A stretch of DNA of 64,000 nt from an uncultured Spirochaetaceae bacterium (GCA_964490725.1 CAZBDU010000014.1:8866-72865); one strand, 5' to 3'; shown: positions 8,826-55,484, numbered from the stretch's first letter. Program-made: numbers and translations. Notes: generated by a model not told the origin, from the sequence alone.

Positions 8826-8849
8826 GAATCGGGACTCCTTCGTTTTCCT

Positions 8850-18456: not shown

Positions 18457-18478
18457 GATGGTTGAATGGAGGGTAGGT

Positions 18479-19725: not shown

Positions 19726-19755
19726 CGAACGAGGCGGCGTGAACGGAGGACGAGG

Positions 19756-20262: not shown

Positions 20263-20281
20263 GGAGCATTGGGAGGATTGC

Positions 20282-20635
20282 ATGGACGACGGAATTCACG
20301 TGCTGACGAAGAGCGCGGCGATTGCGGTGCCGCAGTCAGTGGAAGGGCAACGGAGCCTGCTGGAGGCCGCTTCCGGCATCGAAGGAGTGCAGGAGTCGCA
20401 CCTGGCGAAGGGCGAGCTGGTGGTTTCCTACGTAGCGGAGGCGGTCAGTCTCAGGATCGTGGAAGCCGAGCTGCAGAACCGGGGCTTCGAGCTCCGCCCC
20501 GTTCCCGCGAAGCGCAAGGGGTTTTTCGCCCGCTTTCTGGAGCGGACGGCGGAGAGCAACTACAGGTCCTTCGGGAGCGAGCCGCTGGACTGCTGCACGC
20601 TGCATCAGAAGAAGGCCCCGCAGCAGCGCTCCTGA
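20282..20635 (+). CDS. Hypothetical protein with an HMA-like fold lacking CxxC and a C-terminal ..GSEPLDCC motif
   Basis: GGGAGG SD. Pattern ..GIEGVQESHLAKGELVVSY..IVEAELQNRGFEL resembles a ferredoxin-like HMA fold. The only cysteines are the C-terminal CC pair. Confidence 0.5.
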   Translation: MDDGIHVLTKSAAIAVPQSVEGQRSLLEAASGIEGVQESHLAKGELVVSYVAEAVSLRIVEAELQNRGFELRPVPAKRKGFFARFLERTAESNYRSFGSEPLDCCTLHQKKAPQQRS

Positions 20636-20752
20636 GGGGCGGCAAGCGGTTTCGTTGGGCGCCTGCGGCCGCAGGGCTTGAGGTCCTCCCGGGTCCGCAG
20701 GCCGATTGAAGACGGGGTCCGAGAGAGGATAGGAACGGTGAAGCAGGCGGTG

Positions 20753-21496: not shown

Positions 21497-21605
21497 AGCC
21501 TGCCTGCCCGCGCCGCTCCCGGGAGGCGGGGCAGCGCCTGGCTGCCGGCATCCCAGGGCGTTCGCGAACGCTGTCTATCTCTACAGAGGAAGGAGGTGAT
21601 GATTC

Positions 21606-21749
21606 GTGACGCAGGATCCGGTCTGCAAGATGCAGGTGGACGAGGAGAAGGCCGCCGCCAAAGCGGAGCACATGGGCAAGACCTACTACTTCTGCTCCGA
21701 AGGGTGCAAGAAGGCCTTCGAGGCGGACCCCCACAAGTACATGCACTGA
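21606..21749 (+). CDS. Stand-alone YHS/TRASH domain protein (47 aa; below the ORF-track size cutoff)
   Basis: GGAGG lies 9 nt upstream of GTG 21606. Translation is VTQDPVCKMQVDEEKAAAKAEHMGKTYYFCSEGCKKAFEADPHKYMH, ending at the stop codon. Confidence 0.7.
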   Translation: MTQDPVCKMQVDEEKAAAKAEHMGKTYYFCSEGCKKAFEADPHKYMH

Positions 21750-22126
21750 GTGCATCGTGCGTGAACGGGGCAGGGGAGGAGCGGTGAGGCTGCGGCGCTG
21801 CACCGGCAGCGGCCGCGCCCGCCCTCCTTTCCTGGCGAGTACGGCTGGCGGTCCGGCGATCGGCCTCGAAGGAGGCCGCGACAGGAGGACAGCGGATAAG
21901 AGGCGCAAGGTTCCAGCGGGACCCGGCATGCGGCCGGCGGATGAACCGCAACAGGGTCCTGTGCCGCGATCCGCTGCGGCCGGCGGGAGGTGCTTCTGTG
22001 CTGCCCCTTGTGCCAGGCGGAGTTCGAGGCGGATCAGCGGCGCTTCCTCGCGGAAGCCCGGCGGCCTGGCGGGACCCCCTTCGGGCGGCGGAGGAAGCTG
22101 CCGTACGGTGGAGCACGAGTGGAGTG

Positions 22127-23992: not shown

Positions 23993-24005
23993 GAGGGTGG
24001 AGTCC

Positions 24006-24707
24006 ATGGAGGAACGGATCAAGCACATCCTGAAGGAGCGCACGGCCGCCATCTACAGGCGACGGGCGCGGAACTACGATCTGACGGCAAACCTCTACTA
24101 CCTGCTGGGGTTTCGCGAATGGAGGCAGCGCCTGATGGCGGTCCGGGAGCTCGAGCTGAGGGACGGAGACACGGTCGTGGAGATCGGCTGCGGCACCGGG
24201 CTGAACTTCGCCCTCTTCCAGGAGAGAATCGGTCCCGGGGGGCGTATCATCGGCGTGGACCTGACCGCGGAGATGCTGCAGCAGGCCGCGGAGAGGGTGG
24301 AGCGGCAAGGCTGGAGGAACGTCCAGCTCGTGCAGTCCGACGCCGCTTCCTACCGCCTTCCGGCCGCAGTGCAGGGCGTGTTCTCCAGCTACGCCCTTTC
24401 TCTGGTGCCCGAGTGCGGGTCGGTTGTCGAGGCCGCGGCGAGAAGCCTCGCTGCGGGCAGGCGCATGGTGGTGCTCGACCTGAAGGTCCCGGACGGCATG
24501 CCCGGGTGGCTGCTCGGCCTGGTGCTCCCCCTGGTGCGCCCCTTCGCCGTGACCGAGGAGTTCGTGCGGCTTCGCCCCTGGGAGACGATCCGCTGGGCGT
24601 TCCTGCGCAGTCTGGAGAGCGTGGCGGAGCACTCTCTGTACCTGGGCGTCGCCTACATCCTGCGCGGAGAGCGGAGTGTGCGGCCGGCGAGGGTTGGACC
24701 GGGCTGA
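24006..24707 (+). CDS. Class I SAM-dependent methyltransferase
   Basis: VVEIGCGTGLNFALF, followed by GVDLTAEML. Confidence 0.8.
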   Translation: MEERIKHILKERTAAIYRRRARNYDLTANLYYLLGFREWRQRLMAVRELELRDGDTVVEIGCGTGLNFALFQERIGPGGRIIGVDLTAEMLQQAAERVERQGWRNVQLVQSDAASYRLPAAVQGVFSSYALSLVPECGSVVEAAARSLAAGRRMVVLDLKVPDGMPGWLLGLVLPLVRPFAVTEEFVRLRPWETIRWAFLRSLESVAEHSLYLGVAYILRGERSVRPARVGPG

Positions 24708-24805
24708 AGGAGGCGCATCCCATGTTGAGGGAGCTCGCGAAGGTCCGGTAGACCCCGGGCGAGGGGTTTCGTCGCTGGTTCTGCGACGAGCACTTCGATC
24801 TGATC

Positions 24806-25303
24806 GTGTGGTACGAGGACGAGGCGCAGGCGGATGCGGGCCTGCCGACGGGCTTTCAGCTCTGCTACGACAAGACGGGGCAGGAGAGGGCTCTGACCTG
24901 GCGTCGCGGCGGGAGCCTCCCCCACGAGGCTGTCGATGCGGGCGAGGTTGCGGGCCGTGCGAGAATGGCGCCGGTGCTGTGCGACGGGGGGCAGCTCCAG
25001 GAGGAGGTCATCGAGACGTTTCGCGAACAGAGCTCGAACATGCACGCCCTCATCGTTACCCTGGTGTGCGCCGAAGGCGAAATTCCCGGAACCGACCTCT
25101 TCATACCCTTCAACGCCGTGGAGGCCAACCTGGACCGGCTTCCCCGCAAGGACGCGCCGGTCGCGCTCTATTGCCGAAGCGGCAGCATGAGCACGGCGGC
25201 GGCGCGGACGCTGGTCTCGCTGGGCTACAGCAACGTCATGGAGCTGGATGGGGGCTTCAACCCCTGGAAGCGAGCCGGCCTCCCGCTGGCACGGAATCGC
25301 TGA
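24806..25303 (+). CDS. Rhodanese-domain protein; the reading frame is open from 24752 and is in frame with a 9-codon mini-ORF at 24722 ending in TAG
   Basis: C-terminus APVALYCRSGSMSTAAARTLVSLGYSNVMELDGGFNPW shows the rhodanese active-site loop. The N-terminal part ..GFRRWFCDEHFDLIVWYEDE.. lies before the first candidate start (GTG 24806). Confidence 0.6.
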   Translation: MWYEDEAQADAGLPTGFQLCYDKTGQERALTWRRGGSLPHEAVDAGEVAGRARMAPVLCDGGQLQEEVIETFREQSSNMHALIVTLVCAEGEIPGTDLFIPFNAVEANLDRLPRKDAPVALYCRSGSMSTAAARTLVSLGYSNVMELDGGFNPWKRAGLPLARNR

Positions 25304-36513: not shown

Positions 36514-36582
36514 TACCCTACCCCCCAGGGGTGCACTTTGGGTCCACCTTGATTGTATAACACACGGCAGAGGAAACTGCAA
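36514..36582 (-). promoter_or_regulatory. Second upstream promoter-like element (TTGCAG-N17-TATACA) plus operator copy S4 (minus-strand CACCCCTGGGGGGTAGGGTA, 36533-36514)
   Basis: Read directly. The site sits about 190 bp upstream of S3, in the gap after the copA stop. Confidence 0.5.
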
Positions 36583-39729: not shown

Positions 39730-39790
39730 ATACCCGACCCCCTAATGGTAATTGTGGATAGAATTTAGTGAAAGAGCCGCGGCGAGGCAA
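39730..39790 (-). promoter_or_regulatory. copA promoter candidate (TTGCCT-N17-TAAATT) plus degenerate operator copy S8 (minus-strand TACCATTAGGGGGTCGGGTAT, 39750-39730)
   Basis: Read directly. The site matches about 16 of 21 positions of the consensus from the other copies. The region is locally AT-rich. Confidence 0.45.
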
Positions 39791-40333: not shown

Positions 40334-40389
40334 TTGACACTTTTCAGGAACTGGACTAAGCTGCATTCCATACCCCAGGGGGGTAGGGT
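40334..40389 (+). promoter_or_regulatory. Promoter (TTGACA-N17-TAAGCT) plus operator copy S5 TACCCCAGGGGGGTAGGGT (40371-40389)
   Basis: Read directly. The operator starts 8 nt after the -10 box. Confidence 0.7.
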
Positions 40390-40448
40390 CAAAATCGCGT
40401 CGCCGCTGAAGCCGGTGTGGGCGAATGTACGTCGAGGAGGGACATGCA

Positions 40449-41441
40449 ATGGAACGCTACAGGCCGGCGTTGGTCGGCCTCTTGGGGGCCTTCGGGCTCC
40501 TGGCAGTCTACTTTCTGGTCCTGATCCTGGCGGAGTCCGCGGAGCACGCGCTGGAGCAGCTCGCGCAGCTCGGGTTTTGGATCACCCTCCTGGCCGCAGG
40601 GTTCGGCCTGCAGCTGGGGCTGTACGCCTTCGTCCGCGGCCGGCTGCGGCGGCGCCGCGCTACGGCGGAGGTGGCGGCCACCGGCGGCCTGTCCACCGGC
40701 GCCATGATCGCCTGCTGCGCGCACCACCTGGTGGATGTGCTGCCCGTCCTGGGGCTGACCGCGGCGGCGATCTTTCTGACGCGCTACCAGCTGGGATTCC
40801 TCGTGCTGGGAGTAGGGGCCAACCTGCTCGGGGTCGTGGTGATGCTGGGGATCATTCAGCGCCACGGGCTGTACCAGCCGGGAGGCTGGCTGCGCGGGCT
40901 GTTCAGTTTCGACATGCGGCGCCTGCGCAACCTCACCGCCGTTCTGGCCTCCGTGGCGGTGGCGGTCACGTTCCTGCTGGTGAGCGAGCAGGCCGGGGCA
41001 GCCGGCAGCAGCCGGCGGGGGTCGCTGGCTGTGCGCCCGGAGCCTCTTGCCCAGGGCGGGGCCGGTTCGGGCGTTGCGGACGCTGTCTCGCAGGAGGGCG
41101 TCGCGGCGGCCAGGACGCTGGAGGCGCAGGTGGACGGGCGCAACTTCGTCTCCGTGGCGGTGCAGCCGGTGGAGTTCCGGCGCGACGGGCCGGTGACCTT
41201 CGCGGTAAGCCTCAACACCCACCAGGGGGACCTGGGCTTCGACGTGGCCGAGATCGCGTTTCTGGAGGACGACCTGGGCAACCGGTACCTCCCGACGGGC
41301 TGGGACGGCTCCCCGCCCGGAGGACATCACAGGAGGGGGACGCTGCGCTTCCCTTCGCTGGCGCCGGACGCCGGCTTAGTGCGGCTGACCCTCAGGAACA
41401 TCTACCAGATCCCGGAGCGCGTGTTTGAATGGAAGCTTTGA
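40449..41441 (+). CDS. Membrane protein with an intramembrane CCAHH motif and a C-terminal extracytoplasmic domain with a GGHHR motif
   Basis: GAGGAGGG SD. Four predicted TM helices, the third reading GGLSTGAMIACCAHHLVDVLPVLG. Soluble C-terminus ..VSLNTHQGDLGFDVAEIAFLEDDLGNRYLPTGWDGSPPGGHHRRGTLRFP. Confidence 0.7.
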   Translation: MERYRPALVGLLGAFGLLAVYFLVLILAESAEHALEQLAQLGFWITLLAAGFGLQLGLYAFVRGRLRRRRATAEVAATGGLSTGAMIACCAHHLVDVLPVLGLTAAAIFLTRYQLGFLVLGVGANLLGVVVMLGIIQRHGLYQPGGWLRGLFSFDMRRLRNLTAVLASVAVAVTFLLVSEQAGAAGSSRRGSLAVRPEPLAQGGAGSGVADAVSQEGVAAARTLEAQVDGRNFVSVAVQPVEFRRDGPVTFAVSLNTHQGDLGFDVAEIAFLEDDLGNRYLPTGWDGSPPGGHHRRGTLRFPSLAPDAGLVRLTLRNIYQIPERVFEWKL

Positions 41442-41478
41442 TGCAACTGCGAGGACATAGAAGAGCGGGGGAGGGCGG

Positions 41479-42801
41479 ATGGCCCTGCTGAAGACGCGCC
41501 GCATCCGGGGCGGGGTGCATCCTGCCTACCATCGGGAGCTGGCCGCAGAGGAACCGATCCGCAGGGCGGCGGTCCCCGCGCTTCTCACGGTTCCCCTCTC
41601 CCAGCACACCGGGGTGCCCTGCGAGGCGGTGGTGTCCGCGGGAGAGCAGGTGGCGGAGGGGCAGCCGATCGGCCGCGCCTCTGGACGGATCTCTGCGGCG
41701 GTGCACGCCCCGGTGAGCGGCACCGTGAAGCGCGTGGAGCCCGCGCCCCATCCGCTGGGACGGAAGGCCATGGCGGTGCTCATCGAGCCCGACGGCCGGG
41801 AGGACAGGCGCTACCTGGAGCCGCTGGGTGAGGCGGTGGAGACCCTGGCGCCGGAGGCGATCAGGGAGCGGGTGCGGGAGGCGGGGATCGTGGGCCTGGG
41901 AGGGGCGGCTTTCCCGGCACACGTGAAGTACTCTCCCCCCGCGGGCCGGCCGATCGACGTGCTGATCATCAACGGCTGCGAGTGCGAGCCCTACCTGACG
42001 GCGGACTACCGGATCATGGTGGAGCACGCCGCCGATGTGGTGCTGGGAGCCAGGCTGATCGCACACACTCTGGGTGTGGAGCGCATCGTGGCCGCGGTGG
42101 AGGACGACAAGCCGCGGGCCCTGGAGCGCCTGCAGGAGAAGGGAGGACAGGCGCTGCAGTACGCCTCGCTTCCGGCCCGCTACCCCCAGGGGGCGGAGAA
42201 GGTGCTGATCAAGGCGCTGCTGGACCGGGAGGTGCCGCGGGGAGGGCTGCCGCTGGACGTGGGAGTGGTGGTGGCCAACGTGGGTACCGCCCGGGCGGTA
42301 GCGGAGGCGGTTCGGGACGGCAAGCCCCTGATCGAGCGGGTGGTGACGGTCACCGGTGGCGGGGTGAGGCGGCCGGGCAACTTCCTGGCCCGCATCGGCA
42401 CGCCCTTCTCCGCGCTGCTGGAAGAGGCCGGCGGCCTGACCGGGCCCGCAGGCAAGCTGGTGATGGGTGGGCCCATGATGGGGGTGGCGCAGCTTTCGCT
42501 GGAGACGCCGGTGGTGAAGGGCACCTCCGGTCTCCTGGTGCAGCCAGCCGGGGAGGCGGCCACCGATGGGCACCTGCCCTGCATCCGCTGCGGCCTGTGT
42601 GTGCGGGCCTGCCCGATGGGGCTGCTTCCCTCCACGCTGTCGGTAATGGGGGAAGCCCGCCGCTGGGAGCTGGCCGAAGGCTACGGGGTGTTCGACTGCA
42701 TCGAGTGCGGCTGCTGCACCTACGTCTGTCCGGCCAAGCGTCCCATCGTGCAGTGGGTCCGGGAGACCAAGCTGCATCTGCGGGCCGCAAAGAGCAAGTA
42801 G
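41479..42801 (+). CDS. rnfC: Rnf complex subunit C
   Basis: GGVHPAYHRELA.., NAD/FMN-binding GLGGAAFP, and two ferredoxin motifs CIRCGLCVRACP and CIECGCCTYVCP. Confidence 0.9.
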   Translation: MALLKTRRIRGGVHPAYHRELAAEEPIRRAAVPALLTVPLSQHTGVPCEAVVSAGEQVAEGQPIGRASGRISAAVHAPVSGTVKRVEPAPHPLGRKAMAVLIEPDGREDRRYLEPLGEAVETLAPEAIRERVREAGIVGLGGAAFPAHVKYSPPAGRPIDVLIINGCECEPYLTADYRIMVEHAADVVLGARLIAHTLGVERIVAAVEDDKPRALERLQEKGGQALQYASLPARYPQGAEKVLIKALLDREVPRGGLPLDVGVVVANVGTARAVAEAVRDGKPLIERVVTVTGGGVRRPGNFLARIGTPFSALLEEAGGLTGPAGKLVMGGPMMGVAQLSLETPVVKGTSGLLVQPAGEAATDGHLPCIRCGLCVRACPMGLLPSTLSVMGEARRWELAEGYGVFDCIECGCCTYVCPAKRPIVQWVRETKLHLRAAKSK

Positions 42802-42802
42802 A

Positions 42803-43774
42803 ATGGCTGAAGAGAAGCTTCCCGTCCTGACCGTTTCCTCCTCACCCCACGCCCGGGGGCCCGAATCGGTGCGCCGCATCATGGCCAGCGTGCTGGTCTG
42901 TCTGCTGCCGGCGGTGGTCTACAGCGTGGTTCGGTTTGGCGCCCACGTGGCGCTCATGTACGCAGTGGCCGTGGCCACCTGCCTGGCGGCGGAGGCAGGG
43001 GCGGTGCGTCTGCGCGGGCGCCCCTTCACCCTGGGCGACCTGAGCGCCGTGGTGACGGGGGTGTTGCTGGTGATGACCCTGCCACCTCGGTTTCCTATCT
43101 ACGGGGTGGTCCTGGGCGCCGCCGTGGCGATCGTGATCGGCAAGCAGATCTTCGGAGGCCTGGGGCACAACATCTTCAACCCCGCGCTGGTGGGGCGGGC
43201 CTTCCTGGCCGCCACCTACCCGGTGTTCATCTCGGACTTCTCCCTGGCGGCGGACGCCACCACCGGGGCCACGCCGCTGGCCGCCGCCAAGTTCGACGGG
43301 GTGTCCACGCCGCTCCAGGGATTGTTCCTGGGCACCGTGAGCGGCTCGGTGGGAGAGACCAGCGCGCTGCTGCTCCTGGCCGGCTCGGTGTACCTGTTCG
43401 CCCGCGGCTACCTCAAGTGGCGGATTCCGCTTGCCATCGCAGTGACTGTCGCGATCCTCGGCCAGGCATTTCACTTCCTCGCGCCCCAGCGCTATCCCGA
43501 TGCATTGCATCACCTCCTGGCCGGGGGTCTTTTTCTGGGGGCTCTCTACATGGCGACCGACCCGGTCACCTCGCCCCTGAGCGCGCGGGGCGGGGTGATC
43601 TTCGGCGTCGGCATCGGAATACTGGTGGTGGTGATCCGGCTGTTCGGAGGGCTGCCCGAGGGGATGATGTACGCGGTGCTCCTGATGAACTCAGGCGTGC
43701 CCCTCATCAACAGGGGCACCAGGCCGCGCATCCTGGGAGAGCGGCCGCCTGCGGCCGCGGGAGGCCGACGGTGA
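42803..43774 (+). CDS. rnfD: Rnf complex subunit D
   Basis: Polytopic NqrB/RnfD-type protein with the ..YMATDPVTSP.. motif. Confidence 0.9.
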   Translation: MAEEKLPVLTVSSSPHARGPESVRRIMASVLVCLLPAVVYSVVRFGAHVALMYAVAVATCLAAEAGAVRLRGRPFTLGDLSAVVTGVLLVMTLPPRFPIYGVVLGAAVAIVIGKQIFGGLGHNIFNPALVGRAFLAATYPVFISDFSLAADATTGATPLAAAKFDGVSTPLQGLFLGTVSGSVGETSALLLLAGSVYLFARGYLKWRIPLAIAVTVAILGQAFHFLAPQRYPDALHHLLAGGLFLGALYMATDPVTSPLSARGGVIFGVGIGILVVVIRLFGGLPEGMMYAVLLMNSGVPLINRGTRPRILGERPPAAAGGRR

Positions 43775-43788
43775 GCGCCGCAGGCGGC

Positions 43789-44397
43789 ATGAAAGTGCGC
43801 GGCGCCAACCGGGTGCGGATGGTGGTGGTTCTCACCGTAATCGCCCTGGTCTCCGGGGGAGTGCTGGCTCTGACCTACCTGGTGAGCAGCCCGGCCATCC
43901 AGGCGAACCAGGCGGAATCCCTGCGCAGGTCCATCTACGAGGTGGTCTCCGGCGTGTCGAAGTACCAGGAGAAGAGCCGCGACGGGATGACCTACTTCGA
44001 GTGCCGGGACGCGGCGGGAAAGCTGGCCGGCTACGCCCTGCCGGCTGAAGGCAACGGCTACCAGGGCACCATCCGGCTCATGATCGGCGTGAGCGCGGAC
44101 CTGGCGACCATCACCGGGCTGGAGGTGTTGGAGCAGGTGGAGACCCCCGGCCTGGGCGGCAGGATCGGGGAGAAGGCCTTCCAGGATCAGTTCCGGGGAC
44201 TGCCCACCCAGCCGCCCATCACCTACGTGAAGAACAAGAAGCCCCAGGGGCCGGCGGAGATCCAGGCCATCACCGGCGCCACCATCTCCACCCGGTCCAC
44301 CGTGGCCATCGTGAACCGCAAGCTGGAGGAGGCCAGGCGAGTCCTCGCCGGGGCCGGCGGGGTGGCCGCGGCGGGCGGGCAGGGAAAGGACCGGTAA
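43789..44397 (+). CDS. rnfG: Rnf complex subunit G (FMN-binding)
   Basis: N-terminal TM anchor, then ..QAITGATISTRS.. flavinylation motif. GTG 43771, which overlaps the rnfD stop, is an alternative start. Confidence 0.85.
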   Translation: MKVRGANRVRMVVVLTVIALVSGGVLALTYLVSSPAIQANQAESLRRSIYEVVSGVSKYQEKSRDGMTYFECRDAAGKLAGYALPAEGNGYQGTIRLMIGVSADLATITGLEVLEQVETPGLGGRIGEKAFQDQFRGLPTQPPITYVKNKKPQGPAEIQAITGATISTRSTVAIVNRKLEEARRVLAGAGGVAAAGGQGKDR

Positions 44398-44399
44398 CC

Positions 44400-45098
44400 A
44401 TGGGCGACCGACTGCTGAAGCAAGGACCGCGCCGCAGGGGACTTTTGGAGCTGGCCAAGGGGTTCTGGCGGGAGAACCCCGTGCTGGTGACGGTGCTGGG
44501 CCTGTGTCCCACCCTGGCGGTGACCACTTCCGCGGTGAACGCCCTCACCATGGGGCTGGCGGTGGTGTTCGTGCTCACCGCCTCCAGCGCGATCGTCTCC
44601 CTGATCCGGAATCTTGTGCCCAGACAGGTGCGGATCGCCTCCTTCATCCTGATCATCGCCACCTTCGTAACCATGGTGGACCTGTTTCTGAAGGCCTACT
44701 TTCTGCCTCTCAGCCGGGCGCTGGGACCGTACGTGCCGCTGATCGTGGTGAACTGCATCATCCTGGGACGGGCGGAGTCCTTTGCCTCCAAGAACGGGGT
44801 GGGCCTGTCCATCCTGGACGCCCTGGGCATGAGCCTGGGGTTCACCGCCACCCTCATCGTCCTGGGAGGGATCCGGGAGGTGCTGGGGCAGCGCACCTTC
44901 TTCGGGCTTTCGGTGCTGGGCCAGGGCTTCGAGCCCTGGGTCATCATGATCCTTCCGCCGGGGGCGTTCATCACCCTGGGCTTCCTGCTGGGGGGGAAGA
45001 ACCTGATCGATCGCACTCGCCGGCGCCGGAAGGAGGAGCGGGAGGCTGCAGCCGGCGCCGGCGCGGCGCAGCCGGCGGAGGAGAAGCGGCCGGCATGA
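44400..45098 (+). CDS. rnfE: Rnf complex subunit E
   Basis: ..NPVLVTVLGLCPTLAVT.. is typical of RnfE/NqrD. Confidence 0.9.
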   Translation: MGDRLLKQGPRRRGLLELAKGFWRENPVLVTVLGLCPTLAVTTSAVNALTMGLAVVFVLTASSAIVSLIRNLVPRQVRIASFILIIATFVTMVDLFLKAYFLPLSRALGPYVPLIVVNCIILGRAESFASKNGVGLSILDALGMSLGFTATLIVLGGIREVLGQRTFFGLSVLGQGFEPWVIMILPPGAFITLGFLLGGKNLIDRTRRRRKEEREAAAGAGAAQPAEEKRPA

Positions 45099-45117
45099 GG
45101 GTGGAGGAGAGCGAGCG

Positions 45118-45696
45118 ATGGGGTTGATCCTGATCTTCATCTCCGCGGTGCTGGTGAACAACTTCGTTCTCAGCTACTTCCTGGGCATCTGCCCGTTCCT
45201 GGGCGTGTCCGGGAAGATCGACTCCGCGGTGAGCATGGGCATGGCAGTGACCTTCGTGCTCACCCTGACGGCGGCCATCACCTGGTTGATCAACCGCTAC
45301 ATCCTGGTGGCGCTGGGCCTTCCCTTTCTGGAGTACGTGTCCTTCATCATCGTGATCGCCGCGCTGGTCCAGTTCGTGGAGATGTTCATCCGCAAGACCA
45401 GCAAGGCCCTCTACGACGCGCTGGGGATCTTTCTGCCCCTGATCACCACCAACTGCGCCATTCTGGGGCTGGCCCTGTTCGGGGCCCTGCGGGAGTACGG
45501 GTTTATCCAGAACGTGGTGTTCGGCATCGGGGCGGGGGGTGGATTCACCCTGGCGCTGGTGATCATGGCGGGCATCCGCGAGCAGCTGGAGCTGGCGGAC
45601 GTCCCTGAGTCCCTGAAAGGGGCGGCCATCACGCTGATCATCGCCGGGCTGCTGGCCCTGGCGTTCATGGGCTTCGCCGGGCTGATCTCGGCGTGA
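45118..45696 (+). CDS. rnfA: Rnf complex subunit A
   Basis: ..VLVNNFVLSYFLGICPFLGVS.. is typical of RnfA/NqrE. Confidence 0.9.
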   Translation: MGLILIFISAVLVNNFVLSYFLGICPFLGVSGKIDSAVSMGMAVTFVLTLTAAITWLINRYILVALGLPFLEYVSFIIVIAALVQFVEMFIRKTSKALYDALGIFLPLITTNCAILGLALFGALREYGFIQNVVFGIGAGGGFTLALVIMAGIREQLELADVPESLKGAAITLIIAGLLALAFMGFAGLISA

Positions 45697-45766
45697 AGAC
45701 CTTTGGCGGGCCGCAGCCCGCTCCCCGGTTCGGCGCCGGGGCGGGTGGCGGCGAGAGAGGTTCGTG

Positions 45767-46633
45767 ATGACGATATTGATTGTTTCCCTGGGAAGCATGG
45801 GCGGCATCGGGCTGATCCTGGCCCTGCTGCTGGTCCTGGCGGACCGGCAGCTGGCCGTGAAGGAAGATCCCAGGTTCGAGGAGGCGCTGTCCATCCTTCC
45901 CGGGCTCAACTGCGGCGCCTGCGGCTATCCGCAGTGCTCCGTGTATCTGTCCGCGGTCATGGGCGAGCAGGCGGAGGCCAACCTGTGCAAGCCGGGAGGG
46001 CCGGAGGTGGCCGCGAGACTTGCCGGGTTCCTGGGCGTCGAGGCGGGGACCGTCACCCAGGAGGTGGCGCGGGTGTGCTGCAGCGGCGGCGACCGCGAGG
46101 CGGTGCGCACCCGGGTCTACAACGGCGTGAAGAGCTGCGCCGCGGCCAACCTGGTGGGCGGAGAGAAGGCCTGCCTTTATTCATGCCTGGGCTACGGGGA
46201 CTGCGTGGACTCCTGCCCCTTCGACGCCATCCACATGGGGGAGAACTGCCTGCCGGTGGTGGACCTGGCGAAGTGTACGGGATGCGGCAACTGCGTGGTG
46301 GCCTGCCCGCGGGACATCATTACCCTGGCGGGCTACGAGGAGGCGGTCCACGTGTACTGCATCTCCCGGGACCGGGGGGCGGAGGTGCGCAAGATCTGTA
46401 GCGCCGGCTGCATCGCCTGCAAGCTCTGCGAGAAGGACGACACCACCGGGGCCGTGAAGATCGTGGACAACCTGGCGGTGATCGACTTCTCGGTGCACCC
46501 TGCCCCGGTGGACTCGATTCGCCGCTGTCCCACCAAGGTGATCCGCGTCTCGGAGCCGGTGCCAGGTTTCCAGCCGCGGCGGGCCGAGGCCGCGGCAGCC
46601 GTCGGCGGGCAGGGAGGCCGCAAAGAATCATAG
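45767..46633 (+). CDS. rnfB: Rnf complex subunit B (polyferredoxin)
   Basis: N-terminal TM segment, LPGLNCGACGYPQC, and ferredoxin motifs CLGYGDCVDSCP and CTGCGNCVVACP. Confidence 0.9.
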   Translation: MTILIVSLGSMGGIGLILALLLVLADRQLAVKEDPRFEEALSILPGLNCGACGYPQCSVYLSAVMGEQAEANLCKPGGPEVAARLAGFLGVEAGTVTQEVARVCCSGGDREAVRTRVYNGVKSCAAANLVGGEKACLYSCLGYGDCVDSCPFDAIHMGENCLPVVDLAKCTGCGNCVVACPRDIITLAGYEEAVHVYCISRDRGAEVRKICSAGCIACKLCEKDDTTGAVKIVDNLAVIDFSVHPAPVDSIRRCPTKVIRVSEPVPGFQPRRAEAAAAVGGQGGRKES

Positions 46634-46654
46634 AGGAAGCGAGGAGGTATCGAG

Positions 46655-46969
46655 ATGAGGATACTGACCGTTTTGTTGTCGTGCCTGGTCCTTCTGGGCG
46701 CGGCGTCCGTCGTGTACGGGCACGAGGGTGAGGAGCACGAGGCACCTCAGAAGGTCACGAGCGCCGTCATGAGCGGCTCTCACGACGAGGGGCAGGCCGG
46801 GGGCGAGGAGGAGCACTCCGAGGCGGTGGAGGCGGACTTTCAGACCATCCGGCAGGAGGTGTCTGCCTCCACTGCGTTCATCGTCATCAAGGCGCTGGCC
46901 CTGGCGGCGGCAATCGCGGGGATCGGGCTGGTGTATCTGACCCGCCGCAGGAGCGGAGAGACAAGATGA
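46655..46969 (+). CDS. Small secreted His/Glu-rich protein with a C-terminal TM anchor
   Basis: AGGAGG SD and a signal peptide. Contains HEGEEHE..SGSHDEGQAGGEEEHSE. C-terminal helix AFIVIKALALAAAIAGIGLVYL. Confidence 0.6.
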   Translation: MRILTVLLSCLVLLGAASVVYGHEGEEHEAPQKVTSAVMSGSHDEGQAGGEEEHSEAVEADFQTIRQEVSASTAFIVIKALALAAAIAGIGLVYLTRRRSGETR

Positions 46970-47979
46970 GCGCCGGCGACGCGTCTGAAGGCAAGGAGTG
47001 GAGACTCACAGACTTCGACTACGAGGTGCCGGAAAACGCCGAGCGGTTCGGCTACAGCGTCGGGGGAGTCACCCTGGTGGGACTGCTTCTGCTCATCCTC
47101 ACCGGGATCATCATGACCTTCTTCTACACCCCGACGGTGGATGAAGCGCGGGGGAGCGTCCTGGCCCTGAGCTCTCACCCGGGAGGACTGTGGTTGCGCT
47201 CGTTCCACCGCTGGACTGCAGAGGCGGTGATCTTTCTGCTGATCCTGCACATTACCAGGGTGGTGTTCACCGGGTCTTACCGCGGCAGGCGTACGCTGAA
47301 CTGGCTTTTCGGTGTGCTGCTGCTGTTCGTGACCATGGGATTCTTCTTCTCCGGGACCGTGTTGAAGTGGGATCAGGAGGGATACGAGGCGTACCAGCAC
47401 GCCGTGGAGGCCATGGAGCTGGTCCCCCTGGTGGGGGCCGCGCTGGCTTCGGTCATAACCGGCCTCCCCGCGGTGGCGCGATTCTACGCCACCCACACGC
47501 TGGTGCTCCCGGCCCTGCTTCTCCTGCTTCTTACCCCGCACCTGGTGCTGATGAAGCTGAACGGGCTTTCAACCCTGCCGGGGGAAAGCTCGCCGCGGAC
47601 CAGCTCCTTCTTCCATCATCTGAAGCGAGTGCTGGCCTTCAGCCTGATCGTCTACGGAGTGATGGCGTTTCTGGCCGCCCTGTTTCCGGCCAGCCTGTAT
47701 CCCGGGCCGTACACCGGCGTTGAGATGACCAAGCCGCCGTGGGCGTTCCTGGTCCTTTACGCTCTGGAGGATTGGATCGGCCTCAAGGCGCTGCTGGTGG
47801 CTCCGGTGGTGCTTCTGGTGGGGCTGGTCGTGATCCCCTTCATCGACCGCAGAGCGTCCCTGAGCTCAGCGGCGCGGAAGCTCATCGTCTGGGGCTACGT
47901 TTTCGTCGCCGCCGTGGTGATCTTTCTGATCGTCTACGTCGGCCTCACCCCGCCGGTGACCCATCTGGGCATGGATTGA
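46966..47979 (+). CDS. Di-heme cytochrome b (bc1/b6-type N-terminal domain homolog)
   Basis: His pairs SFHRW-x-LILH (H-x13-H) and ATHTLVLPALLLLLLTPH (H-x14-H) in TM helices. ATGA overlap with the upstream gene. Confidence 0.8.
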   Translation: MSAGDASEGKEWRLTDFDYEVPENAERFGYSVGGVTLVGLLLLILTGIIMTFFYTPTVDEARGSVLALSSHPGGLWLRSFHRWTAEAVIFLLILHITRVVFTGSYRGRRTLNWLFGVLLLFVTMGFFFSGTVLKWDQEGYEAYQHAVEAMELVPLVGAALASVITGLPAVARFYATHTLVLPALLLLLLTPHLVLMKLNGLSTLPGESSPRTSSFFHHLKRVLAFSLIVYGVMAFLAALFPASLYPGPYTGVEMTKPPWAFLVLYALEDWIGLKALLVAPVVLLVGLVVIPFIDRRASLSSAARKLIVWGYVFVAAVVIFLIVYVGLTPPVTHLGMD

Positions 47980-48539
47980 TGGGGAAGCGGCTGCGCTTGT
48001 TCGGGTTGAGAGGGGCTCCCCGCGCCGGCGGCTCCGGCCGCGGGGAGTCCCTCCGCGAGGAGCGCATCCGGAGCCGGCCCGCCGACGGTGAGCCCGCGGA
48101 GGTGGTTGCCGTTCACGGCGGGAGGGCTATCCTGCGGCTGGCCGCCGGCTCGGGATGCGAGAAGTGCCGCCTGTGCAGGCGGGTCTCCTCAGAGGAGATG
48201 GCCCTGTCGGCGCGCTGCGATCCCGGGCTCCGGCCCGGGGACCGCGGAACGGTATTCGTGGATCCGGCGGTGCGGGTCCGGGCCGCGCTGGTCCTGTTCT
48301 TGGCCCCCCTGGCGGCGCTGGTGGGCGGCTACTTCGCCGGCGCCATCCTGGCCCGCGTGACCGGCCTGGGAGGAGGCGGAGAGCTCCTGCCGGCGCTGGT
48401 AGGGCTGGCCTCTCTGGCGGCCAGCTTCCTGCCGATTCATCGCTACGACCGTCGCAAGCGGTCGGACCCGCGGTTTGCCCTCCATTTCTGGGTCACCGGG
48501 CGGTCTTCGGTGGGCGCAGAGGCGTACCGCGGCGATTGA
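47979..48539 (+). CDS. RseC/MucC-family membrane protein (copy 2)
   Basis: ..AEVVAVHGGRAILRLAAGSGCEKCRLC.. followed by two TM helices. TGATG overlap with the cytochrome b stop. Confidence 0.65.
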   Translation: MGKRLRLFGLRGAPRAGGSGRGESLREERIRSRPADGEPAEVVAVHGGRAILRLAAGSGCEKCRLCRRVSSEEMALSARCDPGLRPGDRGTVFVDPAVRVRAALVLFLAPLAALVGGYFAGAILARVTGLGGGGELLPALVGLASLAASFLPIHRYDRRKRSDPRFALHFWVTGRSSVGAEAYRGD

Positions 48540-48596: not shown

Positions 48597-49277
48597 ATGC
48601 AGAACGCAATCGCAGAGGGTATTCACTGGGTGGGAGTGCATTTCCCCACGCCCCCGGGGGCGGCGCTGAACGCTTATCTGATTCAGGACCAGGAGGTGGC
48701 GCTGATCGACACCACCGCCCCGGCCACTGCGCCGGCGGTGCTGGAGAAGGTGAAGGCCCTGGCCGACCCAAGGGAGATCCGGCACATCGTGCTGACCCAC
48801 GCGGACCTGGACCACGCCGGCGGGCTGGCGGCCTTCCTGCGGGAGGCGCCCCAGGCCCAGGTACACGTCAGTGAGTTCGAGGCCAAGAGCCTTCCCATGT
48901 GGGGCGTGAAGGCCTCCGTGCACATCACCGGCGAGGGGGACAGGCTCTCCCTGGGCAGGCATACCCTCCGCTTCATCCAGACTCCCTACATCTGCACGCC
49001 CGGCCACCAGCTCCTGTTCGAGGAAAGCGAGGGGATCCTCTTTTCGGGGGACCTGTTCGCCCAGATCGGCCCGGTGGAATGGACCCTCTTCTCCGAGGGC
49101 GACAGGTCGGAGCTGCTGAAGAAAGTCCAGGCCATGAAGCTCGGCGTGACCGACTACCCGCGGCAGGCCATCGAGAAGATCAGGGACCTGCCGGTGCGAA
49201 TCATCGCCTCGGGGCATGGCCAGCTGCTGAGCGACAACGTGCAGCGCTACATGAAGGAGCTGAGCGGCCAGGCCTAG
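48597..49277 (+). CDS. Metallo-beta-lactamase-fold protein (resembles the FprA N-terminal domain)
   Basis: GGAGGAGG SD. ..IHWVGV....NAYLIQDQEVALIDT..VLTHADLDHAGG. Confidence 0.8.
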   Translation: MQNAIAEGIHWVGVHFPTPPGAALNAYLIQDQEVALIDTTAPATAPAVLEKVKALADPREIRHIVLTHADLDHAGGLAAFLREAPQAQVHVSEFEAKSLPMWGVKASVHITGEGDRLSLGRHTLRFIQTPYICTPGHQLLFEESEGILFSGDLFAQIGPVEWTLFSEGDRSELLKKVQAMKLGVTDYPRQAIEKIRDLPVRIIASGHGQLLSDNVQRYMKELSGQA

Positions 49278-51526
49278 CCGGCAGAGCCGGGGGGTGCGCC
49301 GTCGGGGACGCCTTCTTCGCCTAGCGAGCGCACGTATTCCTCGATCTCCGCGATACGGACGATCGAGAGCATCTCGGCGGCAACCCTCTCGGCCCGCTCC
49401 AGGCTGTTGGCCGCCAGCCGGCTGCGAACCTCCGGGATGCGTCGCGGGTCCACGCTCAGCTTGCGGATCCCCAGCCCGCTGAGAAAGAGGGTCATGGAGG
49501 GATAGGAGGCCGCGTCTCCGCATACCGAGAGCTCAGAGATGCGTTCCCCGACCCCGTCGGCGATCCTTTTCAGGGCGCGCAGCACCATGGGGTGATGGCT
49601 CAGGTACAGCTTCCCGAGCCGTTCGTTGGTGCGGTCCACCGCCAGCAGGTACATGACCAGGTCGTTGGTCCCTATGGACAGGAAGTCCGCCTCCTGCGCC
49701 AGCTCGGAGATTGCCTCCACCGCGGAGGGCAGCTCCACCATCGCTCCGACCCTCGCCCGGGCGTTGTGCTCCACGCCCTGTTGCGCCAGCTCCCGCTGGC
49801 AGCGGTGCAGCTCATCGCGCGCCTCCAGGTACTCGTCCACCGAGGAGATCATGGGAAACATGATCCCCAGCCGCACTCCGGCTCCGGCGCCCGCGCGGAG
49901 CATGGCGCGGAGCTGATCGCGGAACAGGTCCCTGCGAGAGAGGGAGAAGCGGATCCCGCGCACTCCCAGGAAGGGGTTGGATTCGCGCTCCCAGGTGGGC
50001 ATGAGCTTGTCGCCTCCCAGATCGAAGGTGCGCAGAATTACCTCCTCCTCCGGCATGGCGCGCACGATCTCCCGGTAGATCAGGGTCTGCTCCTCTTCCG
50101 AGGGAAAGTCGTAGCGCAGAATGAAGGGAAACTCGCTGCGGTACAGCCCGATGCCGTCGGCCCTGCAGGCGGCGGCACCCTCCAGCTCCGACAGGAGGTT
50201 GATGTTGGCCATCACGCGGATCCCCATCCGGCGCACGGCCTTTTTCTCCTTCACGGTGCATGCCGGAGATACGACGGAGGCCGTCAGCCTGTCGAACCGC
50301 TCCTTCAGTTGTTGCTGCGGCTCGATATGGAGCCTGCCGCCGCTGGAGTCCAGGAGGACAAACGTACCGGGGGGCAGGTCCTCAAGGCGGGGGTCCTGCG
50401 TTGCCAGAACCGGAATGCCCAGCGACCGGGCCAGGATGGTGATGTGGGCTGTGGTGGTGGCTCCCCGGAAGACGATCCCTTCCACGTTCTGGACGGCAAG
50501 CTTCACCATTTCCGAGGGGAACAGCTCGGAGGTGAGAACGATATGCCCCCGATAGTCCGCCAGCTCCTCTTCGATGCCCTCCAGATTGGTGAGAATCCTG
50601 TGGCCCACGTCCCGCACGTCCTGGGCCTTCTGCTGGAGCCGGGGCTCCGTCAGGCGGGTGAACCGGTCGACGTACCGGTTCACCACCTCCACCACCGCGG
50701 CCGCCGGAGTCATCCCCTCCCGGATCCGACGCAGCATCTTCCCGGTGAAGTCCTCATCCTTGAGCATGAGCAGATGAGAGCTGAAGATGAAGGAAGCCAG
50801 GTCCTGCGAATCCAGCTCGATTCGTGACTGCAGCATCTCCAGCTGCTTTTGCGAGGCCTCCACGGCGTGCAGGAACCCCTGCTCGGGGGACTGCCCGGGG
50901 GGCAGGCCTGAGGGAGTCTGCTCGTGGATCGCATACAGATCGGCCAGCCGGAACAGCTGCCCCAGGGCCACGCCGTCGGACACGCTGAGGCCGGTGATCA
51001 GGGTCGGAACCTCCCTGGTAAGCGCCGGCCGGGCGTGCTCCCTGTCCCGCATCTCGATCAGCACGGTGGCGTTCTCCATGGTGGCCGCCAGGTGAGAGGC
51101 GATGGCCTTGAGGGCGTTCAGGTGTTCCTCGTCCAGACCCTCCGGCTGCCGGTTCTCCAGGGCGATCCCGCCGATGAGCACCGGTCCCCTGCGGATGGGA
51201 ACGGCTGCGATCCTGCGCCGGCCTCCCGCGCGGTCGGGCTGCTCGCCGATGCGGGGGCTCCGCTCTCTGAGCGCCTCGGCGATGACGCCCGTGCCCTCCC
51301 GTATCTCCTCCGCGACCAGACCGCCGCGTCCGCCGGAGGTAGCGGAGAACAGCAGGTCCCCGCGCTCCTCGTCCACCAGCAGCACCGTGCAGCTGTCGGC
51401 CTCCAGGAATGAGGCCACCCCGTCGGCCACCTCCCGGAGGAACCCCTCGATGCTTCCCCTCTTCTCGAAGAGGCTGGATAGGCGGCCCAGGATCTGCGCC
51501 AGGTGGATCTTGTGGGGTTTCTTCAT
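49274..51526 (-). CDS. ptsP: GAF-domain phosphoenolpyruvate-protein phosphotransferase (Enzyme I-Ntr type)
   Basis: N-terminal GAF domain followed by PEP-utilising enzyme domains (..GGATTTAHITILARSLGIPV.., ..FLSIGTNDL..). Confidence 0.9.
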   Translation of the reverse strand: MKKPHKIHLAQILGRLSSLFEKRGSIEGFLREVADGVASFLEADSCTVLLVDEERGDLLFSATSGGRGGLVAEEIREGTGVIAEALRERSPRIGEQPDRAGGRRRIAAVPIRRGPVLIGGIALENRQPEGLDEEHLNALKAIASHLAATMENATVLIEMRDREHARPALTREVPTLITGLSVSDGVALGQLFRLADLYAIHEQTPSGLPPGQSPEQGFLHAVEASQKQLEMLQSRIELDSQDLASFIFSSHLLMLKDEDFTGKMLRRIREGMTPAAAVVEVVNRYVDRFTRLTEPRLQQKAQDVRDVGHRILTNLEGIEEELADYRGHIVLTSELFPSEMVKLAVQNVEGIVFRGATTTAHITILARSLGIPVLATQDPRLEDLPPGTFVLLDSSGGRLHIEPQQQLKERFDRLTASVVSPACTVKEKKAVRRMGIRVMANINLLSELEGAAACRADGIGLYRSEFPFILRYDFPSEEEQTLIYREIVRAMPEEEVILRTFDLGGDKLMPTWERESNPFLGVRGIRFSLSRRDLFRDQLRAMLRAGAGAGVRLGIMFPMISSVDEYLEARDELHRCQRELAQQGVEHNARARVGAMVELPSAVEAISELAQEADFLSIGTNDLVMYLLAVDRTNERLGKLYLSHHPMVLRALKRIADGVGERISELSVCGDAASYPSMTLFLSGLGIRKLSVDPRRIPEVRSRLAANSLERAERVAAEMLSIVRIAEIEEYVRSLGEEGVPDGAPPGSAG

Positions 51527-52838: not shown

Positions 52839-52854
52839 GGCCACGCTCCAAGTC

Positions 52855-52874
52855 TACCCCAGGGGGGTGGGGTA
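52855..52874 (-). promoter_or_regulatory. Operator copy S6 TACCCCAGGGGGGTGGGGTA, 17 nt upstream of the thiF-2 start
   Basis: Read directly. It matches the plus-strand consensus exactly, so it is inverted relative to the gene it precedes. I found no clear -35/-10 pair upstream. Confidence 0.6.
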
Positions 52875-54204: not shown

Positions 54205-54260
54205 TTGACTGACCGTGCGCGGCGGCAGTATACTCAAGATACCCCAGGGGGGTGGGGTGT
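54205..54260 (+). promoter_or_regulatory. Promoter (TTGACT-N18-TATACT) plus operator copy S7 ATACCCCAGGGGGGTGGGGTGT (54239-54260)
   Basis: Read directly. The operator starts 4 nt after the -10 box. Confidence 0.75.
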
Positions 54261-54374: not shown

Positions 54375-55484
54375 GTGGTGCCGGTGGCCAGGCAGAATCT
54401 ATGGCATGACAGAGTCAAAGCGCTGATGAGCGTTGGCGGAGTGGTCCTCAGCGTCTTCCTGATCTTCACGATGTACGGGGTGTACAGAGGGATCAACGGC
54501 GTGATGGAGGACATGGTTTTCGGGACCGGAGCGGACCTGTGGATCACTCAGGAAGGGACCAGCGGCTCGGTGCACAGCCCCTCGGTGCTTCCCGCCGGCA
54601 TCGGTGCGCGGCTTGCGGGCATTGCCGGGGTCGCGGAGCACGCGCCGCTCATTCGCACGGCGGTGAGCTACCGCGACGGCGGCGGGGAGACCGCGCTGCT
54701 GTTCCTCAACGGCTATCGGACCACCGGGAGCCTCGGCGGACCCTGGAGCGTCGTGGCCGGGAAGCGCAGCCCGGGACCGGGGGAGGTTCTGCTGGATCGC
54801 TCCTTTGCGGGCAGGCAGGGGCTGCGCATCGGCGGGCGCATCACCCTGAGGGGGCAGCAGTACCAGATTGCCGGACTGACGGAGCGGACCAACATGATGG
54901 TGGGCTTCTTCGTTTTCCTGCGGTATCAGGACGCCGCTCGCTTTCTGCCTGCAGGGCTGACCAACAGCCACCTGGTGCGGCTCCAGCCGCGAGCCGGCGC
55001 CGCGGAGGTGCGCGCCCGGATTCTGCAGCGCCTCGAGGGGGTCAGCGTTCGCACGAGCCGGCAGATCGCCGCCGCCTACAAGGAGGAGGTGGTCGGCAGC
55101 TTTCTCCCGATCCTGCTGGTGCTCAGCCTGGTGGCTCTCGTGGTGGGGGTCCTGGTGGTGGGGTTGCTGATATACATGCTGACCGTCGAGAAGAGCAGGG
55201 AGTACGGGATCATCAAGGCCATGGGAGGTACCAACGCTCAGCTGTACCGGATCGTGCTCTCCCAGTCTCTCATCGTGTCGGTGGGGGGCTACGTTCTGGG
55301 AGCCGCGACGTCGTTCCCCCTGATGGCGCTCATCCGCAGCGCGGTTCCCGAGTTCCTGGCGGTGCTGGATCCCAGGCTTGTCCTCATGGGGCTGCCGCTG
55401 TTCGTTCTCACTGGAATCGCCGCCTCCCTCATCCCGGTGCGGCGGATCGCCGGGATCGACCCGGCCGTGGTGTTCAAGCGCTGA
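54375..55484 (+). CDS. FtsX/MacB-type ABC transporter permease
   Basis: (V)VPVARQNLWHDRVKALMSVGGVVLSV, a large periplasmic loop, then three C-terminal TM helices with ..EYGIIKAMGGTN... GGGAGG lies 5-8 nt before GTG 54375/54378. Confidence 0.8.
   Translation: MVPVARQNLWHDRVKALMSVGGVVLSVFLIFTMYGVYRGINGVMEDMVFGTGADLWITQEGTSGSVHSPSVLPAGIGARLAGIAGVAEHAPLIRTAVSYRDGGGETALLFLNGYRTTGSLGGPWSVVAGKRSPGPGEVLLDRSFAGRQGLRIGGRITLRGQQYQIAGLTERTNMMVGFFVFLRYQDAARFLPAGLTNSHLVRLQPRAGAAEVRARILQRLEGVSVRTSRQIAAAYKEEVVGSFLPILLVLSLVALVVGVLVVGLLIYMLTVEKSREYGIIKAMGGTNAQLYRIVLSQSLIVSVGGYVLGAATSFPLMALIRSAVPEFLAVLDPRLVLMGLPLFVLTGIAASLIPVRRIAGIDPAVVFKR

Follow-up and report, generated by a model that had tools for sequence, protein, structure and literature searches.

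The Rnf complex is an energy-conserving ferredoxin:NAD+ pump that also supplies reduced ferredoxin and, as Rsx, reduces SoxR. In the locus described here, a complete set of rnf genes stands behind a CsoR-type operator. It lies in a 64-kb stretch of DNA from an uncultured Spirochaetaceae bacterium (GCA_964490725.1, CAZBDU010000014.1:8866-72865; hereafter the window), in which a promoter and operator region (40334-40390, + strand) precedes genes for a membrane protein with a CCAHH motif, for RnfC, D, G, E, A and B, for a small secreted protein, for a di-heme cytochrome b and for an RseC-family protein. A complete Rnf with copper-island proteins behind such a switch, seen in two genomes, suggests that Rnf is linked to copper defense in a way not described so far.

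Operator, gene string and a second genome

The putative sigma-70 promoter (40334..40362, +), read from the sequence, consists of a −35 element TTGACA (40334-40339), a 17-nt spacer and a −10 element TAAGCT (40357-40362), and it is followed by a 21-bp operator of the type 2 CsoR kind (40370..40390, +; ATACCCCAGGGGGGTAGGGTC, with 40370-40389 reading ATACCCCAGGGGGGTAGGGT). The published rule for type 2 CsoR operators is a TAC-X9-GTA inverted repeat bridging G tracts (PMC3902906), and the copy at 40370, which lies at a promoter, fits this rule as ATAC-CCCAGGGGG-GTA; four other copies in the window read TAC-X14-GTA. Allowing up to three mismatches, the operator 16-mer occurs six times in the window compared with 0.40 expected, and none of 100 shuffles reached six. 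The extended operator consensus is ATACCCCAGGGGGGTGGGGTA. A −35/−10 pair followed by the operator is the layout in five of the six copies (the one at 40370 and four others), and no clear promoter stands before the copy at 52854. A previous reading of this DNA made without database searches (the sequence-only reading) had placed an operator, S5, and its promoter ahead of the unit and had called the operator CsoR-like; the promoter and operator are present at 40334-40390, and the CsoR-like character agrees with the published rule.

Behind this operator, ten tightly packed genes follow one another on the + strand, with successive gaps from the CCAHH gene to the RseC gene of 37, 1, −4, 2, 19, 70, 21, −4 and −1 nt. 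A consensus scan found neither a promoter-like site nor a convincing terminator inside the unit, and the 37 nt between the CCAHH gene and rnfC likewise held no promoter-like site. We infer a single transcript, and the earlier proposal of one compact unit is borne out by gaps that range from −4 to 70 nt and by the outcome of the scan. An eleventh gene (48597..49277, +), which would extend the unit to 49277, is probably its last member: it has a strong ribosome-binding site (RBS), it starts 57 nt after rseC with no terminator-like site between, and its neighbor on the far side is convergent. Its product is an ODP-family protein of the metallo-beta-lactamase fold (PF19583 ODP, E 2.9e-27), a family of the oxygen-binding di-iron type.

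The six rnf genes named in the sequence-only reading were all found, again on the + strand, and five of the six subunits score above their NCBIfam cut-offs. RnfC (41479..42801; TIGR01945, 521 bits, cut-off 246) carries the Pfam domains RnfC_N, Complex1_51K, SLBB and 4Fe-4S dicluster; RnfD (42803..43774; TIGR01946, 302 bits, cut-off 207) has the flavinylation motif TGAT at residue 154; RnfE (44400..45098; TIGR01948, 240 bits, cut-off 213) and RnfA (45118..45696; TIGR01943, 259 bits, cut-off 229) have the conserved cysteine pairs Cys36/Cys119 and Cys25/Cys113, respectively. RnfB (45767..46633; TIGR01944, 78 bits, cut-off 68.7) is of the long, poly-ferredoxin type with 22 cysteines, and its top-scoring models, NF041836 (Methanosarcina-type RnfB, 227 bits) and NF005505 (224 bits), both remain under their own cut-offs. 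RnfG (43771..44397, a gene call taken from L006) is marginally below its cut-off (TIGR01947, 95.5 bits against 102) but has an FMN_bind domain (PF04205, 61.6 bits, cut-off 22) and the motif ITGATIS. With attachment motifs for flavin mononucleotide (FMN) in RnfD and RnfG and cysteine pairs in RnfA and RnfE, the hallmarks of Rnf are present and the set looks functional.

The window was compared with 80 rnf loci from genome representatives, with 80 cytochrome b loci from metagenomes and with seven contexts of closer cytochrome b homologues. The closest of the 80 rnf loci is only 56% identical to the window in RnfC, and at none of the 80 does a cytochrome b, small partner or CCAHH gene stand beside rnf. 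RnfB relatives of 78–80% identity were found in a set of 5.8 billion proteins, and the contig of the closest one (L175; RnfB 80% and RnfA 89% identical) is 8.9 kb long and has a GC content of 55%, compared with 68% for the window. Its rnfCDGEAB genes are 62–89% identical to those of the window, and they stand in the order divergent copA, operator on the copA side, second operator, an open reading frame (ORF) of 135 residues, a DUF2933-like membrane ORF, rnfCDGEAB and, last, a gene of the CCAHH family. Of the two operators, the one next to copA matches the extended consensus exactly, the second lies between the −35 TTGACA and the −10 TATATT of a promoter leading into the rnf operon, and the CCAHH-family protein is 42% identical to that of the window, with CCLHH and GGHHR motifs. 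Because operator, rnf, CCAHH gene and copA are thus repeated together in a genome of different gene order and GC content, their linkage is not an accident of one genome.

The regulon and the CCAHH family

The six operator copies define a clustered regulon. Besides the copy at 40370, they lie at 18437-18452, ahead of a gene for a flavoprotein that combines a YHS domain with a TrxR-like part without CxxC (18455-19594); at 19704-19719, ahead of genes for an RseC paralogue, a 117-residue ORF, an HD-GYP protein, FtsH, a methyltransferase and a rhodanese (19717-25303); at 36519-36534 (−), ahead of genes for a 457-residue protein of no known function and a VWA-domain protein (36384-33652, −); at 52854-52869, ahead of those for ThiF and TusA (52838-51726, −); and at 54239-54254, ahead of that for a MacB-type FtsX permease (54375-55484). 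A seventh, degenerate copy (TACCATTAGGGGGTCGGGTA, 39731-39750, −) stands upstream of the window copA, which encodes a cupredoxin-HMA-YHS CopA and whose true start is probably the ATG at 39673, with a good RBS, and not the GTG at 39877 of the longest ORF. Together with the operator of L175 that precedes the divergent copA by about 35 nt, this copy ties the operator to the gene of a copper-efflux ATPase. An operator-like match in the comparison locus L009 lacked the extended motif and was taken as chance, and no cis-regulatory RNA was found between 39.6 and 49.4 kb by Rfam matches at E up to 0.1.

The first gene of the unit (40449..41441, +; start supported by an RBS) encodes the CCAHH protein of 330 residues. 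Neither this protein nor the small partner of the cytochrome b and the other partner architectures described below has a significant match to a Pfam or NCBIfam family, with only sub-threshold matches to DUF5643, Cation_efflux and DUF4396. The sequence-only reading had given the CCAHH protein four transmembrane helices, which does not agree with its AlphaFold (AF2) model (mean predicted local distance difference test score 82.8), in which five helices are followed by a beta-sandwich; hydropathy also gives five helices. The two motifs that it had pointed out are present, CCAHH at residues 89-93 and GGHH at 291-294, but of CCAHH only C-C-x-H is invariant. Across the relatives in our alignment (A1), the invariant residues are C89, C90 and H92, which lie in a helix, and, within the C-terminal domain, T257-H258, W285 and G292-H293-H294. 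In a fold search with the model, the best solved match to the sandwich was the copper-resistance protein CrdA of H. pylori, which was weak (E 6e-4); the other matches were generic Ig-like sandwiches only, and the helical domain had none. Some relatives are fused to N-terminal HMA or YHS domains, which places the N-terminus of the CCAHH protein in the cytoplasm and, by the same reasoning, the beta-sandwich outside. An analogy with Mer systems, pairing a membrane protein that has a CC motif with a metal-domain flavoprotein, was dropped, as the YHS-flavoprotein of the window lacks a redox-active CxxC.

The CCAHH family is well conserved, and a profile search found 3,599 representatives of it at 50% identity. 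In all five independent contexts examined (L167, L169/L170, L171, L172 and L136), CCAHH genes stand amid copper-type genes, among them those for P1B-ATPases, HMA and YHS proteins, cupredoxins, regulators of the CopY, MerR and PadR types, a Cus-like RND pump and MacB-type permeases, and none of the five holds rnf. One CCAHH island encodes a DsbD_TM-cupredoxin fusion, and fusions of this kind are known as conduits for electrons across the membrane. Two metagenome contigs of high GC content (L136, 2925-5695; L165, 619-6389) have a split CCAHH gene, in which a first ORF encodes the GGHH sandwich and a second the helices, and this pair adjoins a cytochrome b homologue in the company of genes for a YHS protein, two FtsX permeases, a cupredoxin and CopA. 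In L136, the cytochrome b is followed by a secreted anchored protein that starts GHEGEEEP, and a long ORF of the same contig contains, by reading of its sequence, ABC-ATPase, YHS and methyltransferase-like segments. A further recurrence is that of a phosphoenolpyruvate (PEP)-utilizing enzyme: a GAF + PEP-utilizing (PtsP-like) gene (49274-51526, −) converges on the operon, and a PEP-utilizing enzyme with a faint YHS match is encoded directly after the CCAHH gene in an unrelated contig (L167, 9099-11021).

The cytochrome b, its small partner and RseC

The cytochrome b (46966..47979, +; PF00033 and PF13631) is of the type in which b6 and subunit IV are fused, and its best solved relatives are cytochromes b6 (E 3e-34). 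The sequence-only reading had described it as a di-heme protein with H-x13-H and H-x14-H pairs, and this description is supported by alignment: H81/H95 and H177/H192, with the b6-type spacing, align with H86, H100, H187 and H202 of cytochrome b6 and are invariant in the family (alignment A3). Two features of b6 are altered, as the Cys35 of heme ci is replaced by Ser and the PEWY motif of the Qo site by PPWA (residues 257-260). The family has an invariant His145 and Glu141 in the cd loop at the outer face, where cytochrome b6 has Ile and Trp; these two residues could make up a site for a metal or for docking. Other invariant non-ligand residues include K134-W-D-Q-E-G, A142, H218 and E253-x-T-K-P (span 134-145, 218 and 253-259). 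Family scans detected a Rieske or cytochrome c domain in no gene of the unit, nor was one encoded beside the closer cytochrome b homologues; a cytochrome c gene lies 2.4 kb from the cytochrome b in L173 only.

Directly upstream, a gene for a small secreted protein of 104 residues (46655..46969, +) overlaps that of the cytochrome b. This protein, without a family match, has a C-terminal anchor and a predicted mature N-terminus of HEGEEHE, the predicted cleavage falling between VVYG and HEGEE so that His is the first mature residue. It is a conserved upstream partner of the cytochrome b (L001-L005, L087-L098, L173 and L174), and the pair occurs in all seven fetched contexts of 56–69% identical homologues as well as at closer metagenome loci. 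Conserved features of the partner are the signal peptide, the one His predicted to begin the mature protein, the motifs KVT and DFxxI and the anchor at the C-terminus. The claim of a His-rich anchored protein therefore holds for the HEGEEHE N-terminus and the anchor but not for the richness in His and Glu, which its homologues do not share. More distant cytochrome b relatives (35–43% identity) have partners of other architectures, upstream or downstream, that also show His-(G/E/S)-(G/D/E) after the signal peptide, and altogether 42 of the 80 cytochrome b loci have a partner starting with His after its signal peptide; four loci (L087, L088, L089 and L090) do not fit cleanly. A His as first mature residue is documented for secreted proteins that bind Cu(II) or Ni(II) (PMC12537917). 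Because no second His that would complete a brace is conserved in the partner, and the homologue in L002 has none, this is not a classical histidine brace.

Copper-type genes lie near the cytochrome b at 13 of the 80 loci, and at 10 of 35 when only loci of 8 kb or more are counted, compared with none of the 80 control rnf loci. For P1B-ATPase or CCAHH genes the difference is 11 cytochrome b loci against no control rnf locus (Fisher p = 7e-4), and in L136 and L165 it is CCAHH genes that stand beside the cytochrome b, with YHS, MacB-type and CopA genes. No rnf gene was found near the cytochrome b at any of roughly 90 loci, the 80 metagenome loci and the seven closer contexts among them. The cytochrome b is thus not a conserved attachment of Rnf, being absent at the 80 rnf loci and standing as a module of its own in the seven contexts and the 80 metagenome loci. 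Of the elements that flank rnf, the operator and the CCAHH gene recur with it in L175, but the cytochrome b joins rnf in the window only. The simplest reading is that the partner–cytochrome b pair was inserted between rnfB and rseC. GC content at third codon positions is uniform over the unit (0.84–0.94), and given this uniformity there is no sign of a recent horizontal transfer of the cytochrome b module. In Ignavibacteria, rnf clusters have an insert of 1–2 kb between rnfA and rnfB; that of L023 encodes a Tat-signal protein and, by sequence reading, an ApbE-like protein, and no cytochromes. In L005 (7770-9534), genes for a 2Fe-2S thioredoxin-like protein and an [FeFe]-hydrogenase-like iron-sulfur (Fe-S) protein lie directly upstream of the partner–cytochrome b pair, a further hint that cytoplasmic low-potential donors can link to the cytochrome b module.

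At the end of the ten-gene string, an RseC/MucC-family protein (47979..48539, +) has an N-terminal cysteine motif, CxxCxxC, and two transmembrane helices at about residues 91-120 and 133-151; its assignment as RseC-like in the sequence-only reading is upheld by a PF04246 score of 63.9 bits (cut-off 24.4). The position of RseC beside rnf is ordinary, being found at four of our comparison loci (L007, L010, L023 and L056) and in the acetogen C. ljungdahlii (PMC9124969). For the idea that Rnf and RseC here form the SoxR-reducing system, this neighborhood is a known one, but the protein scores only 16.5 bits against a cut-off of 184 with NF008115, the equivalog model of the SoxR-reducing RseC of E. 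coli, and is not an equivalog.

A proposed electron path and its alternatives

The core of the finding would be a copper-controlled Rnf, to which the cytochrome b module and RseC appear to be lineage-specific additions. We propose, with a confidence that falls a little short of an even chance, that the unit is a copper-responsive operon which provides an electron path from Rnf to the outer face of the membrane and so protects the envelope of this uncultured high-GC bacterium. A CsoR-type repressor, encoded outside the window, would occupy the operator that follows the promoter and come off it on binding Cu(I). This would lead to the joint production of the CCxH/three-His membrane protein, the Rnf ferredoxin:NAD+ oxidoreductase, the Rieske-less cytochrome b with its tether, RseC and probably the ODP protein. 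Rnf, aided by RseC, would move low-potential electrons from ferredoxin or NADH to the outer face of the membrane, where the FMN of RnfG is exposed, and the cytochrome b would connect this side with the quinone pool. Copper may be bound there at His and Cys sites provided by the CCAHH protein and the tethered partner, so that envelope copper, or groups oxidized by copper, would be reduced and the copper then passed to efflux proteins of the same regulon (CopA, the MacB-type permease). The outcome would be an oxygen-independent protection of the envelope. We suggest this mechanism because the FMN of RnfG is exposed, because CCAHH islands can encode electron conduits and because there is a precedent in Methanosarcina acetivorans, where electrons leave Rnf for a cytochrome encoded in the same cluster (PMC12174285). 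Copper responsiveness, metal binding and the whole electron path with its direction, including the electron delivery to a periplasmic metal-redox step that the sequence-only reading had suggested, are what we infer.

Several observations weigh against this proposal. The −10 element TAAGCT is weak (three of six consensus matches) and the consensus scanner did not report the promoter at 40334, and tblastn with CsoR of B. subtilis and M. tuberculosis, RcnR of E. coli and CopY as queries found no CsoR-family (DUF156) gene in the window. The link of rnf to operator and CCAHH gene is seen in two genomes only; the cytochrome b module joins rnf in this window only and is absent from the visible part of L175, a contig that ends 500 nt past the CCAHH gene. 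CCAHH genes of other phyla work without Rnf, so physical coupling is not required, and the match of the sandwich to CrdA has a template-modeling score of just 0.48 on the target, which is weak. Turning Cu(II) into Cu(I), which is more toxic, would not protect in any evident way, which makes the proposed direction and acceptor tentative, and repressing a housekeeping Rnf, were it the sole Rnf of the organism, would be odd.

Another explanation, which we consider unlikely but which survives better than the others, is that the genes are co-regulated without sharing an electron path. Because copper damages exposed Fe-S clusters, Rnf and RseC would be switched on to keep ferredoxin or a specific cytoplasmic Fe-S client reduced, or the regulon would supply a replacement Rnf, and the accessory modules would handle copper alone. 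Rsx with RseC is indeed an established stress-linked reducing system, with SoxR as its client in E. coli (PMC12174285), although the RseC of the window, as its score with the equivalog model indicates, is not the equivalog of the E. coli protein. Consistent with this explanation, the second RseC paralogue is encoded by the first gene of an operon without rnf behind another copy of the operator, the regulon holds repair and stress genes (FtsH, HD-GYP and the YHS-flavoprotein), and both the CCAHH gene and the cytochrome b module are free of rnf in every other lineage examined. However, the genes of the partner and the cytochrome b sit between rnfB and rseC, with a gap of 21 nt and overlapping stops and starts, and the CCAHH gene touches rnf in two genomes, which is tighter than simple co-regulation needs.

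It is very unlikely, in our view, that Rnf is induced as an ion pump whose Na+ or H+ gradient drives copper export through the CCAHH protein as a secondary transporter. Rnf does translocate ions (PMC12174285), and the helical domain of the CCAHH family bears a weak likeness to Cation_efflux (CDF) proteins, seen in 4 of 29 members (best E 0.0015), but these matches stay below the cut-off (18 bits against 26.6). Furthermore, cells already keep an ion gradient, and the cytochrome b, its partner and RseC would be left unexplained. We give just as little credence to an operator for a CsoR-family sensor of another signal, such as a CstR-like sensor of persulfide or one of nickel or cobalt, with the unit serving sulfur or redox stress. 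Persulfide and Ni/Co sensors are among the members of the CsoR family (PMC8643695, PMC5016687), and rhodanese, TusA and ThiF belong to the regulon; against this, copA of L175 is immediately preceded by an identical operator and copA of the window by a degenerate one, and YHS, HMA and cupredoxin domains are abundant in the regulon and its relatives. The CstR-like version in particular was set aside, as the operator controls copA. Slimmest of all is the chance that a housekeeping rnf-rseC set with its own promoter came to lie below a copper-regulated gene and received an unrelated cytochrome b module, for although copper genes occur at none of the 80 rnf loci of species representatives and the cytochrome b link is unique to this window, the combination of operator, rnf, CCAHH gene and copA recurs in L175 with another gene order and GC content, and just 37 nt without a promoter-like site separate the CCAHH gene from rnfC.

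The components taken singly are already known: Rnf, RseC beside rnf, CsoR operators and b6-type cytochromes. The E. coli RsxABCDGE complex with RseC resembles the unit in that a membrane protein of the RseC family works with an Rnf-type complex to donate electrons in connection with stress. In E. coli, however, the genes are unlinked, SoxRS induces the system, and its client is SoxR, a [2Fe-2S] protein of the cytoplasm, whereas here a CsoR-type operator precedes one compact unit that also encodes a cytochrome b and copper-island proteins, and its RseC fails the equivalog model. In C. ljungdahlii, too, rseC is an immediate neighbor of rnfCDGEAB, and Rnf depends on RseC for its function or its expression (PMC9124969), but there rseC is upstream, forms its own transcript and serves autotrophy; here it is downstream, separated from rnfB by two inserted genes, and part of a copper regulon. 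The Rnf-MmcA system of M. acetivorans also has an extra cytochrome gene in the rnf cluster, and its electrons are thought to exit to a membrane carrier or outside acceptor (PMC12174285). MmcA, in contrast, is a multiheme c-type cytochrome of an archaeal methanogen and is not metal-regulated, whereas the cytochrome here is of the di-heme b6 type, has a small tethered partner and is linked to rnf in one genome only.

The CsoR-copZA regulons of B. subtilis and S. lividans share with the window a TAC-X9-GTA element with G tracts at or just after a promoter and the control of copA (PMC3902906), but the published regulons consist of efflux and chaperone genes, none of them with rnf in the literature searched, and the window itself contains no csoR. 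Cytochrome b6 and subunit IV of b6f and menaquinol:cytochrome c complexes resemble the cytochrome b in fold, in the four His with their H-x13-H and H-x14-H spacing and in the P-x-W of the Qo loop. They differ in that the window has no adjacent gene for a Rieske protein or a cytochrome c1/f, in Ser for Cys35 and PPWA for PEWY, and in the invariant His145 and the secreted partner with its N-terminal His. Finally, the Salmonella ScsABCD system (of the DsbD/CcdA type) and the cupric reductase CcoG share the idea that withstanding or handling copper calls for electron transport across or within the membrane. They are unrelated in sequence to the unit of the window, and they use thiol-disulfide relays or, in CcoG, Fe-S clusters, whereas flavins, Fe-S clusters and b hemes would serve here.

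In keeping with the sequence-only reading, we found no description in the literature searched of an rnf operon under a CsoR-type operator or of an rnf cluster with a b-type cytochrome. The same literature describes neither the CCAHH family nor N-terminal-His partners of a Rieske-less cytochrome b. A 2025 review of Rnf names the multiheme cytochrome c of Methanosarcina (MmcA) as the sole extra subunit (PMC12174285). An Rnf controlled by a copper repressor, standing in two genomes beside a copper-island membrane protein, would add metal defense to the roles of the complex, and it bears on the open problem of how anaerobes, with no recourse to oxygen-dependent multicopper oxidases, shield their envelope from copper. 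For Firmicutes, a dedicated membrane cupric reductase has been postulated, but none has been found (PMC13344008). It is improbable, though less so than an ion pump or another signal, that a copper-induced transmembrane redox machine is built from Rnf, the CCAHH protein and the Rieske-less cytochrome b along with its N-terminal-His tether, and that it uses electrons from ferredoxin, NADH or quinol to change the redox state of outer-face copper or of copper-oxidized groups; if so, anaerobes would have an oxygen-independent detoxification of envelope copper and Rnf a new physiological role. Two sizeable, functionally uncharacterized families without a Pfam model, the CCAHH proteins and the N-terminal-His partners of cytochrome b, are flagged here as candidates for copper handling or copper redox chemistry.

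Elsewhere in the window, the region from about 8000 to 16000 has a GC content of 52–57%, compared with 66–70% for the remainder. Its genes encode a GntR regulator, a 2Fe-2S and molybdenum hydroxylase pair, an HMGL-like enzyme, an Nramp transporter and a flavoprotein that resembles old yellow enzyme and dienoyl reductases, and the region is possibly an acquired island.

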